DNA of 64,000 nt from a virus (Duplodnaviria; Caudoviricetes). How positions within the stretch are numbered: position 1 is the first letter of the stretch; each line of letters starts with the position of its first letter. The position numbers and the translations under genes were made by a program. The notes beneath the pieces are model-generated. The model did not search any database. It worked only from the letters and a program-made list of their open reading frames with translations, and was not told the origin of the DNA. The stretch lies in the IMG/VR virus record IMGVR_UViG_3300011335_000604, positions 6,320 through 70,319 of that record. One strand, 5' to 3'. Positions 3,001 through 51,746 of this stretch are shown one piece after another.

Positions 3001-4159
3001 GAAAGTCAGCAAGCTCCCCTAAGCCGTTAATGTATTGGTCTTCTGTCCCGTCAACGGTCACGGTAAACGTGCCGTCAGTTGTTAGCGGGTTTGGATCACT
3101 AACGGTAAAGGCGGGAGGCATTATAAGCTCGATCGAACTTATGGTGCCGGTACCAGCTTCGGCATACTCGACATAACCAGCGCCAGTTAGTGTCAAAACC
3201 ATTCCGGTAGTAGCGGATGCATACCCAGGGGTTGTCACCTGTATAAATCCAGTACCCGAAAGGTTAACCCCGCTTGGCTGTATGTCTACAAACCCAACAT
3301 TTCCTGCCCCATCATCAGCCGTGTATGTCTGGTAGTTTGTTGAGTTTAAAATATATCGATTTACATTTTCCCACTCAAAGTCAAATCCGCCGCCATCAAT
3401 CAAATTGTCTTGAGTCAACAGAGAGCTGATGTTCAACGTGTCCTGCCAGTCCTGTACGAGAGAACCGCCAACACTTGTAACGTCCACGCAAAGGGTTGTT
3501 CCCTCTGGAAATTCGCCGGGTCCATTCAACAGCGTGGCATCAAACTGGGCATATACCCCAGGGCCTCCGTCTGAATAGTTGGAAAGTTGGTATACACCAT
3601 ATACGGTCGGGTCAGTCTTGCTGAACACAAAGATCCACGAACCGTCTTGAATGATTGGCCAGAAACCTGTAAAGTCTTGGTTATTTGCCGTGAAGTAGTT
3701 CACCCGGATATTACCACCAGTGTCGTACAGGAACGTGCCTGTATCAACGCCGTTTCCTGCGGTGTACTGGATGGAACACTCTGGCTCGGTGTTGCCACAC
3801 TCGCAGCATCCCTTGAAGATAGACGTGGCGAGGAGGCGATATATTTCAACCGTCTTAGCCTGTACTACGTCTTGCGTGTCCTGGTAGGTTAGTTTTACAA
3901 ATGTTACCCCACCAACCTGCTCTATGTCATATACACGAAACGTGAAAGACTCCCCGGCCACCTGTGAAATTGTAATCGTGTCATACCGGTACGATATGTA
4001 GGCCGGGTTCTGAGGCAAAATTTGACTCATGGCCCTTACGTAGTTCGTTCCGTTTAAGAACGATACAACGTCGTTTCCCTCTACTTGTATGTGGGTAATT
4101 ACAGGCGTGTTACTGGGGGTAATCGCCGAGTTAGTTTTTTGCGGTGGGATTGTGGCCAT
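2..4159 (-). CDS. Long tail fibre / receptor-binding protein, partial (C-terminus runs off the window start)
   Basis: Not in the ORF track. Hand translation from ATG at 4159 (overlapping the upstream stop as TAATG) gives MATIPPQKTNSAITPSNTPV... and stays open to base 2. G/T/S-rich, with three YTVxNGL...LGG repeats and a GCCEC cluster. Last gene of the virion module. Confidence 0.75.
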   Translation of the reverse strand, partial: MATIPPQKTNSAITPSNTPVITHIQVEGNDVVSFLNGTNYVRAMSQILPQNPAYISYRYDTITISQVAGESFTFRVYDIEQVGGVTFVKLTYQDTQDVVQAKTVEIYRLLATSIFKGCCECGNTEPECSIQYTAGNGVDTGTFLYDTGGNIRVNYFTANNQDFTGFWPIIQDGSWIFVFSKTDPTVYGVYQLSNYSDGGPGVYAQFDATLLNGPGEFPEGTTLCVDVTSVGGSLVQDWQDTLNISSLLTQDNLIDGGGFDFEWENVNRYILNSTNYQTYTADDGAGNVGFVDIQPSGVNLSGTGFIQVTTPGYASATTGMVLTLTGAGYVEYAEAGTGTISSIELIMPPAFTVSDPNPLTTDGTFTVTVDGTEDQYINGLGELADFPVYTVQNGLHPKESPLDPFVFHLGGQLIEDTIIDTNEILGPASNNEWQFAIRANKTAPNNGQDSQFPFGVANLGSGGVATFQDFGSGFRPNPSVEIIGEADLFEPLLELRMEGNLPNPDPILADRIALLRLKYDGDPALAKMSIDYQFKNDDVSPNPIYFIGGRLTTEVTNFTANDEQTKFTLQLFDNGSRQNKLEMSGPGQLKLNTYVPGAFVDNTLSYVLAVNSTGEVFRKLATTGGTVQEVSATGLLTTSPDPITVTGTVSSEMNSGFLVGRYSSGLGVFQEITVGAGLDLSAAGVLTADGSVPVYTVDNGLSPDPGDPYNFQLGGPLVQDTTITGGTVPFTNYLHIDNLNGFSLDVNNKGYLISENGDDKSQFIFTKVYASSRYENNLTGELAEISVGGDSGISDVNAFLRAATVFGETGIYAGVVPGILPYTANMLGVKTPKVANGTATVGQVLTLKSMTGSEAGRVEFEDAAPPGATYDSNQGIYKDTSLTNDTFQLGAPSGLQTAIPFSVDRYIYTKYSSLTFEGIPDNQNIINVVGFTGTNVSRGVNVDYTNSSKSTAFYAAISNSGVGLEVASSGTGFDIKQIGSSKLTTNAPVPGIALALEILNPSNTASGDGVKINLLANTIESYYTNATGESNLRFAVRPDGVSSSINSLELDGTLGQVIFNQYGQTPAVFPDASPVWALGVDASGNVVEFDPGGSGPTYTVDNGLTENPANNFQLGGLLLTDTTIDGDGNTYSLAFDGMYIIGGTASFKTSFAVNDGTTTSSFALQPTIANIGCGVNGSGSASFAEFTDTQSRLGYLTPTQTIQFGANATGLYVKTPDVAAAAATVGQVLTLQNATTGEAEWQDAPGGGGIPFGVATGTDTYAVSAGTASTYTDGDAYLVRFTNGNTGGSTLNVNGIGAANMYSSSDGLLIGGDIWAGAQMLCVYNSSLPGFQCIGTSPNSLFAYVTNAETTAITKGMAVFAFGGTGDRLTVKKALATGDSTSAQTV

Positions 4160-4806
4160 TATTTACATTCTTCTTCTGTCGCGAAGGTACAAAATTCGTC
4201 GAGACTTTTGTACATTTTCGCATACTTAGAAGAAGGGAACTTGTCGCGCCATTCCATCTTGACACGCGCCCACTCTGGGCCGGTCCGCACAGGCTGCGCC
4301 CGCTTTTCTTCCTTGGCGCCCGAAAAGATTAAATCGATGACCGACTTCTTGCTAGGACGCCCGCCGTTCTTGCGCTTGCCTTCTATCATCGTCTTTACCT
4401 CCGTCAGCTTCTCGTGGTTGGCATCTTCGAGCAGCTCCACTAGTTGACGCAGGGAAACACAGCCATCGAGCTTGCCACGGGTTATCGTAACCTTTTCACG
4501 AACCGGCGGATCGCTGTCCAAAAACCTAATATCAAACCCAAGTTCGCGCATAGCGAAGGTAAGGGAGAGAATGTCTGCCTTGATTTGGGCGGTTCCCCGG
4601 TTGGGAACTGAGGGGTAAATTGCGGAATGGGTGTTTGTGCGCTTCTCATCGTCTACATAAATCTCGGTATTACTAAAGGCGTAGTCACCATTCCCCCTGT
4701 AAACTACTACTCTTGCGGTAGGGAGTTTGTCTTTTAGCTGCTTAATTAGTTCTCTATACTCTCCTAATTCGTGCGGGGTTGGATCCGCTATCATTAATTC
4801 TATCAT
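4159..4806 (-). CDS. Hypothetical protein (215 aa) with its own promoter
   Basis: ORF track; TATATTTG element just upstream; basic GGRPSKK patch; no family recognised. Confidence 0.7.
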   Translation of the reverse strand: MIELMIADPTPHELGEYRELIKQLKDKLPTARVVVYRGNGDYAFSNTEIYVDDEKRTNTHSAIYPSVPNRGTAQIKADILSLTFAMRELGFDIRFLDSDPPVREKVTITRGKLDGCVSLRQLVELLEDANHEKLTEVKTMIEGKRKNGGRPSKKSVIDLIFSGAKEEKRAQPVRTGPEWARVKMEWRDKFPSSKYAKMYKSLDEFCTFATEEECK

Positions 4807-42869: not shown

Positions 42870-43010
42870 CAACCTCGCGTGGTTGTTTTATGTTTGCCCA
42901 ATATTTCACTCCTCGTTTGCTAAAGAACCACAGTAAACGAGGGTTGGAAGGTAATGAATTGCTCTTACCAACCCAAAGGCTCGCAAAGTGGTTCTTGCGA
43001 GCTTTTTTTA
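42866..43010 (+). promoter_or_regulatory. Promoter plus three-hairpin attenuator-like leader of the initiator gene
   Basis: TTG-N20-TATGTTTG (42889-96); hairpins 42911-42942, 42941-42974, 42979-43002 plus T7; loop1/loop3 complementarity. Confidence 0.65.
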
Positions 43011-43014
43011 TTTT

Positions 43015-43671
43015 ATGAACACAGGACAGATAGTTAAAACGAGGAACGTCCCATACGCGATGGTTCCCTCGGAATTTCTTAGAAGCAAGTCTGTAAGCCT
43101 AAAGGCTAAAGGACTTTTATCGTTTTTGTTATCCCTGCCCACGGACTGGGTGATATACAAAAGTAAACTTACCGATTATTTTTTAGACGGAAAGGATTCA
43201 ATATCAAGCGCTTGGGATGAGTTGGAGGCCTTGGGTTACATACACTCTGTCCGCATTGTCGAAGGAAACGGCTTGTCAAGGGGTTTCAATTACGTCGTGT
43301 ATTACGAGCCTACGGAAAGCGGGTTACCGGAAAGCGGATTAACGGAAAGCGGAAAACCCGATATCCGAAAACCCGCCACTACATATATAGATAATACAAA
43401 GAAAGAAATAACATACAAATACTCTTTCGAGCTTTTTTGGTTGGGGTATGACAAAAAAGTAGACAAGAAACAAGCCCTTGCTGTTTGGAACAAACTATCT
43501 GAAGAGGACCGGATATTAGCCGTGGAAGGCATGGGTAACCACAAGAATGGGCGCGAGCGAAAATATTGGAAGGACCCGGTAAGATACCTTCGCGACAGGA
43601 GATGGGAAGACGAAACACAAACGAAAACAACAAAACAAACACCTATTCAAGATGACAGCAATACATGGTAA
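43015..43671 (+). CDS. Replication initiator (lambda-O-like architecture: N-terminal HTH, C-terminal DnaD-like domain)
   Basis: YAMVPSEFLRSKSVSLKAKGLLSFLLSLPTDW; FELFWLGYDKKVDKKQA...YLRDRRWEDE. ATG 43015 preferred over GTG 42988, which lies inside the leader hairpin. Confidence 0.75.
   Translation: MNTGQIVKTRNVPYAMVPSEFLRSKSVSLKAKGLLSFLLSLPTDWVIYKSKLTDYFLDGKDSISSAWDELEALGYIHSVRIVEGNGLSRGFNYVVYYEPTESGLPESGLTESGKPDIRKPATTYIDNTKKEITYKYSFELFWLGYDKKVDKKQALAVWNKLSEEDRILAVEGMGNHKNGRERKYWKDPVRYLRDRRWEDETQTKTTKQTPIQDDSNTW
43311..43420 (+). repeat. Intragenic iterons plus AT-rich tract (putative origin)
   Basis: CGGAAAGCGG three times at 15-bp spacing, then two AAAACCCG, then an AT-rich run; the arrangement of lambdoid ori inside O. 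Confidence 0.65.
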
Positions 43672-45633: not shown

Positions 45634-45664
45634 TTGCACTAAAGCAACACATATGCTACATTTG
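45634..45664 (+). promoter_or_regulatory. Bacteroidota promoter
   Basis: TTG-N20-TACATTTG. Confidence 0.7.
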
Positions 45665-46330: not shown

Positions 46331-46396
46331 CCTTAACCAGAAGTCGTGGCGGTGGATAAATGCAAGCGAAGCCGCCACGGCTTTAACCTAAACGAA

Positions 46397-46882
46397 ATGA
46401 GATACACATTCAAAGACCTGGTAGACATGGTGCCCACATCCCGTAGGGCTGAGTTTACCAAAATATACGAGTACCTACACAAGGTAGACGACGCACAAGA
46501 AAACGAGCTACTTGAAAAGGTGGGCAGGCACTTTAGCGTTCCCGTGGCGTCAATAAAGGGAGACAAAAAGATTAGAGACGTTGTACTCGCCCGGCAGATG
46601 TTTATGACCACTGTAAAGGTGTGCAGCACAAAAAGCCTTGCCGAGGTTGCTAGGCTTATTGACAAGGACCACGCAACGGTATGTCACGCGCTGAAGACCA
46701 TGAAGGCCGACTACGAATACAACGCCGTACGTCGCAACCAGATACGTCACTTTATTGCCGACCTACAGCCATCACAACAAGAACTATTATTAGACTTTTT
46801 CAATGAACGGAATCCCAATATCCTTGCCGCCTACGCCGTCCAACCGGAGCGAGTTACAGCACCTGCGCAAGCTGAGGCATAA
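46397..46882 (+). CDS. DnaA domain-IV (C-terminal HTH) protein
   Basis: KVGRHFSV...RDVVLARQMFM...SLAEVARLIDKDHATVCHA matches the Bac_DnaA_C pattern; ATG 46397 has the typical leader. Confidence 0.75.
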   Translation: MRYTFKDLVDMVPTSRRAEFTKIYEYLHKVDDAQENELLEKVGRHFSVPVASIKGDKKIRDVVLARQMFMTTVKVCSTKSLAEVARLIDKDHATVCHALKTMKADYEYNAVRRNQIRHFIADLQPSQQELLLDFFNERNPNILAAYAVQPERVTAPAQAEA

Positions 46883-47334: not shown

Positions 47335-47513
47335 CGCTGTTTTACGATGAACGTAATAGAGGCATACAGGTACGAATGTTACAAGTGGGATAGCCATGGG
47401 ATAGAGATGTGTAAGTATATTTGCGTCCCTGTAACCCTGCTTGTGGTTCGTTACAAAAAAGAAACCCAAACACATCTAATATTTTGGAATTAAAAAAGTC
47501 ATTTATCCGTCAC

Positions 47514-47723
47514 ATGTTGGAGTTTCCCAACATCACGCTCACCTCATTCCTAATCGCATTTTTTATTGCCTTTGCACTTTCTATTGTGCAGAAAAACTAT
47601 GCAAGTGCGTTGGGATGTTTCCTAACGATCGCTGCGATCCTGCCTATAAAGTACATGGCATGGAAGAGACAGCCGGTGCAAGAAAATAAAAAGCAAAAAG
47701 TCATCGTAATCAAAAGAAAATGA
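47514..47723 (+). CDS. Small two-TM membrane protein
   Basis: Two hydrophobic helices and a basic tail; TATATTTG at 47416-23 upstream. Confidence 0.6.
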   Translation: MLEFPNITLTSFLIAFFIAFALSIVQKNYASALGCFLTIAAILPIKYMAWKRQPVQENKKQKVIVIKRK

Positions 47724-47757
47724 GCAAACTAAAATGTTTGTCGATACATTTGCGAAG

Positions 47758-47838
47758 TTGCGTTGTTGTGGCGCAAGTTCAGTTTGTTTTAATCATTTCG
47801 TTTGTGTGAACCGCTCCTAACAAGGGGCGGTTTTTTTT
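47758..47838 (+). ncRNA. Candidate trans-acting antisense sRNA (~80 nt)
   Basis: TACATTTG (47745-52), hairpin TTGCG/CGCAA, stem GTTCA/TGAAC with a 25-nt U-rich loop, terminator CCGCTCC/GGGGCGG-T8. Confidence 0.6.
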
Positions 47839-47874
47839 CGGTGATAGTGATTATATTTGTAACATATCAACTGA

Positions 47875-48894
47875 ATGAAAAATAATGTACAAAGCTATCT
47901 GAAGATTCTCAACGACACTCGAGACATCAGTCAAAACAAGAAAATTGATTTAGAGTGGGAGAATATAAGTACCGGGGCTACGTTAGAGTCTTTCAAACGA
48001 GCATTCCTTGCATGGAAGAAAAAGAACGGCTCAAAGATGGTCAAGAAGGCCAAGGTTAATCCAGGAACAGTAATGGGTGCGTTTCAGCAGATCGTTAAAG
48101 AGCTGGTTCCGGACAACAACCCGCTAGCGCTTCCCGAATCAAAAGAAAGGGAATGGAAACCATATAAATTACCTGTAAACCACAATGATATCCTTTTTCT
48201 TACCGACATTCACGTACCATACCACAACATTCCTGCGCTCACAGCGGCGCTCAAGTACGGGCTCGAAAACGAGGTCAACACCGTCTACATCAACGGGGAC
48301 CTCATTGATTTCTATGCCATTAGCCGTTTTCAAAAGGATCCTCGCAAGCGCGACCTTGCGTCTGAGATCTACATGGCGCGGGAGTTCCTCTACACGCTGC
48401 GGAAACTGTTCCCTACACAGGCAATATACTTCAAGGCAGGAAACCACGACATCCGATGGGACCACTACCTAATCAACAACGCGTCTGACCTTGTAGGTAT
48501 TGAGGAGTTTTCGCTGGAGTCCATCCTGCACCTCAAGCAGCTCAACATCACGTTCATCCCAGACAAGCAGCTTGTTCAAATGGGTAAGTTAATTGCCGTA
48601 CACGGCCACGAGTTTGGACAAAGTATGTTCAGCCCGGTAAACATCGCTCGCGGTCTTTATCTACGCGCTAAGGACAACGCGATCTGCGGACATCACCACC
48701 AGACATCGGAGCATACGGAACCCAACATCAACGGCAAAGTGACAACCTGCTGGTCGGTAGCTTGCCTGTGCGAACTACACCCAGACTACATGCCAATCAA
48801 CAAGTTTACACACGGGTTCGCACACATCAAAGCGTTTGATAATGATGAGTTTGAGGTTATGAACTACCGCATAGTAAACGGTAAGATTAAGTAA
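47875..48894 (+). CDS. Calcineurin-like metallophosphoesterase
   Basis: TDIH, GDLID, GNHD, HGH, GHHH motifs; promoter TATATTTG at 47852-59. Confidence 0.85.
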   Translation: MKNNVQSYLKILNDTRDISQNKKIDLEWENISTGATLESFKRAFLAWKKKNGSKMVKKAKVNPGTVMGAFQQIVKELVPDNNPLALPESKEREWKPYKLPVNHNDILFLTDIHVPYHNIPALTAALKYGLENEVNTVYINGDLIDFYAISRFQKDPRKRDLASEIYMAREFLYTLRKLFPTQAIYFKAGNHDIRWDHYLINNASDLVGIEEFSLESILHLKQLNITFIPDKQLVQMGKLIAVHGHEFGQSMFSPVNIARGLYLRAKDNAICGHHHQTSEHTEPNINGKVTTCWSVACLCELHPDYMPINKFTHGFAHIKAFDNDEFEVMNYRIVNGKIK

Positions 48895-49460: not shown

Positions 49461-49518
49461 AGTTAAATTTCTTGCTATTTGCCATGCGTGTTGTATTTTA
49501 GCCACCTAAATAAACGAA

Positions 49519-50001
49519 ATGAACGATCTCGAAAGAAAGAAACGGCTGATTGTGACTGCCTTGGCCTCACAACAGATCTACGCGCAGTGTCACGACGAGT
49601 GTGTGGACCTAAACTTCTTCAAGCACGACTTGAGGATGTTCTCAAAGAACCTTATCACCAAGCTGGAACGTGAGCTTATGCCCATGTTCAAGGTCATGGG
49701 GGACGTGGAGGGCGGAGACGCCTACCTAAACGCGGTTGATCTGATGGAGGTCACCCTCCAGAACCTAGCAACGCTGCCCGTGGAGTACTGGGCACTGGTA
49801 AACATTGGAATACACGACATAAAACGACAAATTGATGAAAAAAACCAAGCAGGGGCTGATGGAATACCTAGCGGAACAGCTCCAGACAACGAATCAAGCG
49901 ACGAAGGAGAGGGTGATGGAGGTGGTGTTGAAGCACCTGCCGACGTTAAAGAAGATGAGGCAGGAGGAGATTCAAAGCCTTCTAAAAAAGTGCGAAAATG
50001 A
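49519..50001 (+). CDS. Hypothetical protein (3' part overlaps a second ORF at 49832-50044)
   Basis: ORF track; AAACGAAATG leader. Confidence 0.55.
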   Translation: MNDLERKKRLIVTALASQQIYAQCHDECVDLNFFKHDLRMFSKNLITKLERELMPMFKVMGDVEGGDAYLNAVDLMEVTLQNLATLPVEYWALVNIGIHDIKRQIDEKNQAGADGIPSGTAPDNESSDEGEGDGGGVEAPADVKEDEAGGDSKPSKKVRK

Positions 50002-51437: not shown

Positions 51438-51455
51438 ACAAACGAAATAAACGAA

Positions 51456-51746
51456 ATGAAAAAGAAAACAAGCTACACAATCTTTGCCTTTGAACCCGGC
51501 ACAGAGGTCTACGCCATATCGATATGGTACGACAACTCACGTCCTACCGACCACCTAGCAATCTACAAGGCCAAGGTAGCCTCGTGGAGCTACGATGCGG
51601 AGGAGAATGACGTTTTATACTACCTTGAGAGTCCAAGAGACGGCAAATGGTGGGGAGATTCAATTAAGGGGGAGTATGTATCCGACAACTTCAACGATCT
51701 TCTTACTTACGCTAAAGAACTCTGGAGAAATGAAACGGAAATATAA
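51456..51746 (+). CDS. Hypothetical protein (96 aa)
   Basis: ORF track; AAACGAAATG leader. Confidence 0.65.
   Translation: MKKKTSYTIFAFEPGTEVYAISIWYDNSRPTDHLAIYKAKVASWSYDAEENDVLYYLESPRDGKWWGDSIKGEYVSDNFNDLLTYAKELWRNETEI

Follow-up and report, generated by a model that had tools for sequence, protein, structure and literature searches.

The 151-nt gap between a 69-aa ORF (47514-47723) and a metallophosphatase gene (47875-48894) of an uncultured freshwater Bacteroidota-type phage holds a unit that is probably a clade-specific phage sRNA gene, read from the plus strand as an RNA of about 82 nt. On the sequence data we give this reading a probability of roughly three in four. The unit is conserved in sequence and in structure, its strand can be assigned, and an unpaired stretch of it is complementary to start regions of phage genes. 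That the unit is transcribed, where its RNA starts and stops, that it pairs in vivo and in which direction it regulates we infer from these observations. Positions are those of the window, i.e. the whole stretch of 64,000 nucleotides analysed, which spans bases 6320-70319 of an IMG/VR virus record that is 70,319 bp long and has been rated complete.

In the mechanism that we favour, a sigma-A-type promoter (-7 box 47745-47752) would start transcription at about 47757. The RNA would fold a 5' hairpin, leave about 30 nt unpaired and stop at the terminator 47808-47838, which would also close the upstream early operon, as in 3'-UTR-type sRNAs with their own promoter. The invariant U/G-rich linker is most likely an extended seed; by pairing with A/C-rich start regions devoid of a Shine-Dalgarno sequence it would control translation or stability. 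The best candidate targets would be the 160-aa gene (49519), the 96-aa gene (51456) and the primase leader (43615-43640). For the sRNA gene and the control of start regions by linker pairing, taken together, we see odds only somewhat better than even: the sequence data are suggestive of pairing through the linker as the best mechanism, and the particular targets are candidates.

Setting, predicted promoter and fold of the unit

Sequences of this phage are present in 20 public runs, all DNA (riverine, lake, sediment, marine and viral metagenomes, and a coded 'organism A'), chiefly riverine and lake metagenomes. No GenBank phage matches it at blastn sensitivity. A long structural module on the minus strand (5.3-42.6 kb) opposes a plus-strand early/replication module that begins at 42.7 kb. 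According to Pfam and PHROG the latter encodes a replication initiator, a BT4734/PriCT primase, a DnaA domain IV protein (the ORF at 46397, with a Bac_DnaA_C domain in Pfam), the metallophosphatase and an endonuclease VII. ARAGORN found no tRNA or tmRNA gene in the window (1-64000). The features of the unit and its candidate target regions are listed in Table 1.

Table 1. Location of the unit's features and of the start regions complementary to its linker.
Feature	Position	Strand	Observation
Near-invariant block closing the 69-aa ORF, at about -60 to -35 relative to the predicted RNA start	47698-47723	+	98.5% column identity, 30 relatives
Inverted repeat/small hairpin CAAAC-N6-GTTTG	47724-47742	+	just 5' of the -7 box; 88% of cells paired
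Putative sigma-A -7 box TACATTTG, Bacteroidota type	47745-47752	+	unchanged in 29 sequences
5' hairpin, 6-7 bp stem, variable 3-6 nt loop	47758-47776	+	folds in 29/29 relatives
U/G-rich unpaired linker, candidate extended seed	47777-47807	+	0.99 column identity; unpaired in the folds of 29/29 relatives
Intrinsic terminator: 11-bp G+C-rich stem, 4-nt loop, T8 (47831-47838)	47808-47838	+	11 pairs, 6 G-C
Separate -7 box TATATTTG of the metallophosphatase gene (ATG 47875)	47852-47859	+	kept in all relatives
Candidate target 1: start region ATAAACGAAATGA of the 160-aa ORF	49510-49522	+	AACGAAATG in almost all relatives
Candidate target 2: start region of the 96-aa ORF, tandem AAACGAAAT units, downstream AAAACAAGC	51438-51476	+	complementarity to the linker
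Candidate target 3: primase leader ACACAAACGAAA-N5-AAAACAAAC	43615-43640	+	12-37 nt 5' of ATG 43652
AAACGAAATGA at the start of the DnaA-domain-IV gene	46390-46400	+	exact here; relatives read AAACAAACATGA or AAACGAACATGA

The promoters of this phage are of the Bacteroidota type (TAnnTTTG). The -7 box of the unit at 47745 reads TACATTTGC, identical to the box at 45657; the intergenic boxes at 47416 and 60067 read TATATTTGC and that at 47852 reads TATATTTGT. The unit's box fits the TAYATTTGC boxes at 45657, 47416 and 60067. Since the sigma-A box of Flavobacterium occupies -12 to -5 (PMC9723704), the RNA is predicted to start at 47757, one base before the hairpin, and to extend to about 47838 (~82 nt), ending in the T-run 47831-47838. 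Only the unit's box and that of the long leader at 42889 have no ORF start within 120 nt. The latter (TATGTTTG, 119 nt before the replication-initiator ATG 43015; stretch 42889-43014) is the only other plus-strand intergenic box that precedes a long untranslated stretch.

The box of the phosphatase gene sits 14 nt past the T-run in all relatives. Because this gene keeps its own conserved -7 box, the unit is not merely the phosphatase leader but stands alone. The terminator of the unit must also end the upstream operon. In the inverted repeat just 5' of the unit's box one pair is altered on both sides, and relatives show AACC/GGTT-type variants; the repeat might serve as an operator or form a small hairpin in the RNA transcribed from upstream.

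The -7 element, the hairpin and the intrinsic terminator had been recognised in an earlier sequence-only reading; they lie where it placed them and are kept among relatives. Its 'stem with 25-nt loop' has to be abandoned: this stem forms only when promoter bases are included in the fold, and from the predicted start the stretch is unpaired in 29/29 relatives. Folded singly from that start, all 29 sequences give a 6-7 bp hairpin, 29-31 unpaired bases and an 11-12 bp terminator; the fold of the window's own sequence adds just two weak pairs (47799-47800) within the linker. Paired positions are complementary in 88.6% of cells, versus 37-55% when the partners are slid, with compensatory UA/CG and CG/UA changes. 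In the stem of the 5' hairpin U-A, U-G and C-G pairs are exchanged among relatives and the loop sequence varies freely. In the terminator stem 96% of cells are paired, with CG/UA/UG exchange, and 47808-47833 followed by T8 is the top-listed terminator-like site of a 20-kb scan. The fold energy is -24.6 kcal/mol for the plus strand versus -16.5 for the minus strand; this advantage of 8 kcal/mol, the many G-U pairs and the one-sided T-run assign the unit to the plus strand.

Two features of trans-acting sRNAs are present, a conserved accessible seed (the linker 47777-47807) and a rho-independent terminator. A promoter that would yield a discrete short transcript is predicted from the -7 box, which is unchanged, of consensus grade and like the other promoters of the phage.

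Conservation of the unit and of the block upstream

Conservation in related phages had been named as a check of the sequence-only reading, and the unit passes it. We gathered 38 related viral loci via the neighbouring phosphatase, at 79-95% protein identity, and aligned the 29 distinct sequences. In 20-nt bins the column identity reaches 0.985 (47698-47717), 0.965 (47738-47757) and 0.99 (47778-47797), for 0.65-0.7 in the upstream genes and 0.8-0.95 in the phosphatase gene. Conservation of the unit, which peaks at the promoter and in the linker, exceeds that of the flanking genes. The -7 box, hairpin, linker and terminator are all retained in these ~29 distinct viral-contig relatives and in 36 metagenome contigs. 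The 30-nt linker, GTTCAGTTTGTTTTA(A/T)TCATTTCGTTTGTG, is nearly invariant in the alignment of 29 distinct sequences; it contains GTTTGTTTTA at 47782-47791 and TCATTTCGTTT at 47793-47803.

With a covariance model, six complete genomes each gave a single copy, and metagenome contigs gave 36 more. For the latter, the metagenomes were scanned with the 5' half of the linker as query; 88 stretches matched and 80 loci were searched with the model. The full element was present in 36/80 of these loci and the linker was identical in all 36, i.e. no new seed variant appeared among copies found by a scan with the linker's 5' half. New hairpin variants with a U-A to C-G exchange accompany the same linker in these copies.

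The unit is absent from phages at ~60-65% phosphatase identity (one at 72%), where the phosphatase gene abuts its upstream neighbour, so the unit is a clade-specific module. In these loci (L096-L138, ~60-72% phosphatase identity) the phosphatase gene directly follows a gene ending ...LAELTGYIKAKQ*, without intergenic unit, and a terminator then an A-rich leader stand immediately 3' of the phosphatase gene instead. Weak minus-strand matches of the covariance model in the ~60-65% relatives were rejected: they are reverse complements of an ordinary terminator-plus-leader, and we read them as composition artefacts. In 185,579 bacterial species genomes the element was absent by exact pattern, which gives no lead to a host.

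Conservation extends upstream, to a block formed by the last 8 codons of the 69-aa ORF, the remainder of which is only ~65-70% identical. At 47711-47723 this block reads CAAAAGAAAATGA, complementary to the linker (an 'anti-seed'), and its pairing with 47793-47804 is predicted by RNAalifold as well as by a fold of the single sequence. Its few variants are mostly synonymous, and pairing with the linker is kept or improved. AAAAAGTCAT recurs at 47493 and 47695. The block may mask the seed in long transcripts, or be a further target, or a promoter-upstream element. Sequestration of the linker by 47711-47723 in read-through transcripts could occur, and fits a cis-acting structure as well.

In such a cis-acting reading the unit would be no more than a structured 3' terminus of the early operon upstream, the linker pairing with 47711-47730 and no separate small RNA being made; the terminator would end or insulate the operon and the long-range helix would serve stability, processing or protein binding. 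We consider this rather unlikely, with real points on its side. The terminator is the only strong one on the plus strand between 44 and 53 kb, in a 147-nt read-through fold most of the linker is paired with 47711-47730 (-41.3 kcal/mol, z -3.7), and RNAalifold gives the same helix, whose partners are the region's most conserved blocks. But the invariant, promoter-grade -7 box is left unexplained; the part of the helix at 47724-47730 varies without change in the linker and covaries with the local hairpin instead; and RNAalifold reveals no two-sided compensatory change in the block-linker helix.

The interval could also be a promoter-proximal terminator cassette that controls read-through, the linker being the recognition site of a phage or host factor. 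It would then recall PR'-tR' of lambda, which yields a short RNA except when an antiterminator is at work. A strong terminator within ~80 nt of a promoter and directly 5' of the next operon suits such a device, and the invariance of the linker far exceeds the typical length of a seed. However, a conserved -7 box belonging to the downstream gene itself lies 14 nt past the T-run, so that expression of this gene does not need read-through. Nor was an antiterminator found: by Pfam and PHROG the neighbours are only of replication type, nuclease or phosphoesterase, or match nothing. This reading appears improbable to us.

Linker complementarity to start regions and the level at which the bases act

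The sequence-only reading had the RNA masking start codons. The matches on which it relied are present: TCATTTCGTTT at 47793-47803 has its complement AAACGAAATGA at 46390, 49512 and 51449, each time over an ORF-opening ATG (46397, 49519 and 51456), and CACAAACCAAATGA at 61300-61313 covers the ATG at 61310. What followed from them stood in part. Masking is plausible for 49519 and 51456, whose sites are kept in most relatives, while the duplex energies in this genome are no better than those of shuffles. The DnaA-IV site, exact here, is absent from relatives and specific to the genome of the window, and we rejected that gene as a conserved target. At 61310 only one-mismatch variants occur, in 2/5 relatives.

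At the starts 49519 and 51456 the linker complement AAACGAAATG(A) is kept in most relatives; its core AACGAAATG is retained at both and the flanks are variable. The duplex of candidate target 1 reaches about -18 kcal/mol in four genomes (orthologue mean -15.2). Most relatives retain AAACGAAATGA where the 96-aa gene, or its counterpart, begins. Candidate target 2 is the best duplex of this genome at -24.8 kcal/mol (interval -30..+30), and is not the top one in other genomes. AAACGAAAT is duplicated in tandem before the ATG of the 96-aa ORF (51438-51459), a duplication present in several relatives and missing in others. Searches of Pfam, PHROGs and the ESM Atlas returned no function for the 160-aa and 96-aa proteins.

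In this genome the primase leader matches both linker halves, by 12 + 9 complementary nt, and is the best start-region duplex for the interval -35..+15 (-19.6 kcal/mol). TAAAACAAAC, whose complement lies in the half of the linker other than that holding TCATTTCGTTT, is found in the primase leaders of 11/14 relatives, and an overlapping AAAACAAACT in a twelfth. A 215-aa gene on the minus strand (4159-4806) carries a TATATTTGC box of its own, and its short leader, which reads CACAAACGAAGTTATG in relatives, complements the linker's 3' end. With -17.0 kcal/mol this gene displays the best duplex energy averaged over orthologues, although its site is weak in this genome.

The exact 11-nt complement occurs in three start regions against a shuffled-linker mean of 0.13 (P about 0.001). 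This mean also caps the probability of seeing one or more exact hits, and the three hits are one repeated motif. The shuffled-control check on duplex energies went against the proposal in this genome: for 82 start regions and 300 shuffled linkers, P was 0.48 for the minimum and 0.23 for the top five, and start regions gave no better energies than gene interiors. Averaged over orthologues in six genomes, the energies marginally beat the shuffles (P 0.02-0.05; top-4 sum P 0.04), and four orthologue groups lie at or below -14.9 kcal/mol for 0.86 expected (P 0.02). The top-ranked candidate target changes between genomes, and some non-complementary start regions are equally conserved. No covariation of seed and target was seen: the seed variants (a 1-base deletion in L022 and L038, GTTCG in L034) are uncompensated in the targets. 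The repeated 11-nt motif could simply be a favoured initiation sequence.

A second class of targets had been assigned to hairpin 1. GTTGTTGTG does lie at 47762-47770 and its complement CACAACAAC at 57221, 58044 and 58529. We nevertheless rejected this class: about half of the 9-mer is within the hairpin stem, the loop being only 5 nt, and the matches are low-complexity CAA/CAC leaders. As the loop varies among relatives, the class is unsupported; of relatives sharing the same loop, one has four CACAACAACATG sites and another (G004) none.

The conserved bases could instead act as DNA, i.e. as sites of a regulator or replication protein (AAACGAAAT-like repeats in either orientation) or as part of an origin. 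AAACGAAAT-like motifs do occur in both orientations over 43-52 kb, including the tandem pair 51438-51456, and the unit lies among replication genes (initiator, primase, DnaA domain IV protein). Yet plus-strand copies of the motif are in register with start codons, which a DNA site does not need, the structure is kept by G-U pairs that are possible solely in a plus-strand RNA, and the T-run is on one strand only. We judge a DNA role quite improbable.

Slightly less probable again is that the product is a 29-aa hydrophobic peptide (MSKLKCLSIHLRSCVVVAQVQFVLIISFV) translated from ATG 47720, which overlaps the upstream stop (ATGA). The ORF is open in 29/29 relatives, its ATGA overlap stands behind an initiation motif typical of the phage, and the C-terminal QVQFVLFISFV frame is kept in 24/29. 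An open frame says little here, because two of three frames are stop-free in this A-poor stretch. Against a peptide, 17 relatives read the bases of the -7 box in frame 0 and 12 in frame 1, and the linker is read in three frames; reading the same invariant bases in different frames places the constraint on nucleotides, not on protein. The peptides differ over half their length and the 30-nt linker lacks the synonymous variation of true genes nearby. Conservation of both frame and peptide among relatives, the mark of a small protein gene, is not found.

A functional minus strand, i.e. a start-region-like CACAAACGAAATGA with a 5-codon micro-ORF (MIKTN or MNKTN), is very improbable: it resembles the phage's typical leader plus ATG, the micro-ORF is kept in relatives and the covariance model weakly matches reverse complements of 'terminator + leader + ATG' at ~60-65% phosphatase identity, but no minus-strand TAnnTTTG box is seen right of the unit, and on this strand the G-U pairs become A-C mismatches, with a fold 8 kcal/mol weaker and no T-run.

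Comparison with known RNAs and significance

To our knowledge, nearly all phage-encoded regulatory RNAs described so far come from phages of Proteobacteria, and our literature search found no sRNA for phages of Bacteroidota. In architecture the unit resembles the enterobacterial sRNAs MicL and DapZ, which are of the 3'-UTR type and have an internal promoter. The promoter (a predicted one in the unit) occupies the extreme end of the upstream coding region, the terminator is shared with the mRNA and the unpaired seed is conserved. The likeness is architectural only, since MicL and DapZ are Hfq-dependent RNAs of Proteobacteria. Bacteroidota, as far as we know, have neither Hfq nor Shine-Dalgarno-led initiation.

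In the host phylum GibS of Bacteroides thetaiotaomicron offers a precedent, its extended unpaired seed pairing across start codons (PMC7366714). Like GibS and other intergenic sRNAs of B. thetaiotaomicron, the unit combines a TAnnTTTG promoter, an intrinsic terminator, an AU-rich composition and a long conserved unpaired seed, here opposed, from sequence alone, to start codons of mRNAs without Shine-Dalgarno (PMC7366714). GibS differs in being chromosomal, longer and endowed with a seed at its extreme 5' end (PMC7366714), and the phage unit has no sequence similarity to it.

No Rfam family reaches its gathering score on the unit, and the Bacteroides families are far below threshold (BTnc201: 16.8 bits versus 105). 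The only Rfam model that spans the whole unit, and that likewise ends in a terminator, is DUF3800-I (RF02969; PMC5737381). We rejected membership in it, the score being 25.5 bits for a gathering threshold of 44.2, with many non-canonical pairs. A search for the DUF3800 gene (PF12686) came up empty in the phage's 70-kb genome and was positive in the control genomes.

Among phage RNAs, the c4 antisense RNA of P1/P7 (~77 nt) blocks in trans the ribosome-binding region of a phage mRNA through exposed segments (PMC12197685). The unit would be alike as a phage small RNA whose exposed segments face the initiation region of the phage's own genes; its complementarity is 11-14 nt across the ATGs 49519 and 51456, of marginal significance. 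In contrast, c4 is processed from the transcript of its own target and controls antirepressor and immunity in a temperate enterobacterial phage (PMC12197685). The unit would not be processed from a target transcript upstream of an antirepressor gene: it has a putative promoter and a terminator of its own, its candidate targets are 1.7-4 kb away in other transcription units, and no lysogeny module is seen. OOP of lambda is another short (~77 nt) terminated transcript with its own promoter in a phage replication region, as predicted here; it is cis-antisense to the 3' end of cII (PMC12197685), whereas the unit overlaps no opposite-strand gene.

A bolder form of the sRNA reading is tentative, and on balance we doubt it: an 'anti-initiation-region' RNA, the two halves of whose linker would pair with the starts of the primase and of two genes of unknown function, possibly also with host mRNAs, read-through copies being held inactive by the anti-seed 47711-47723. 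If true, it would be the first trans-acting sRNA described for a Bacteroidota phage. As a conserved candidate whose seed is defined and whose possible targets are few, the unit offers a test case for control of initiation by RNA pairing on A-rich leaders, and the candidate sRNA also bears on the timing of replication genes in a lytic-type phage.
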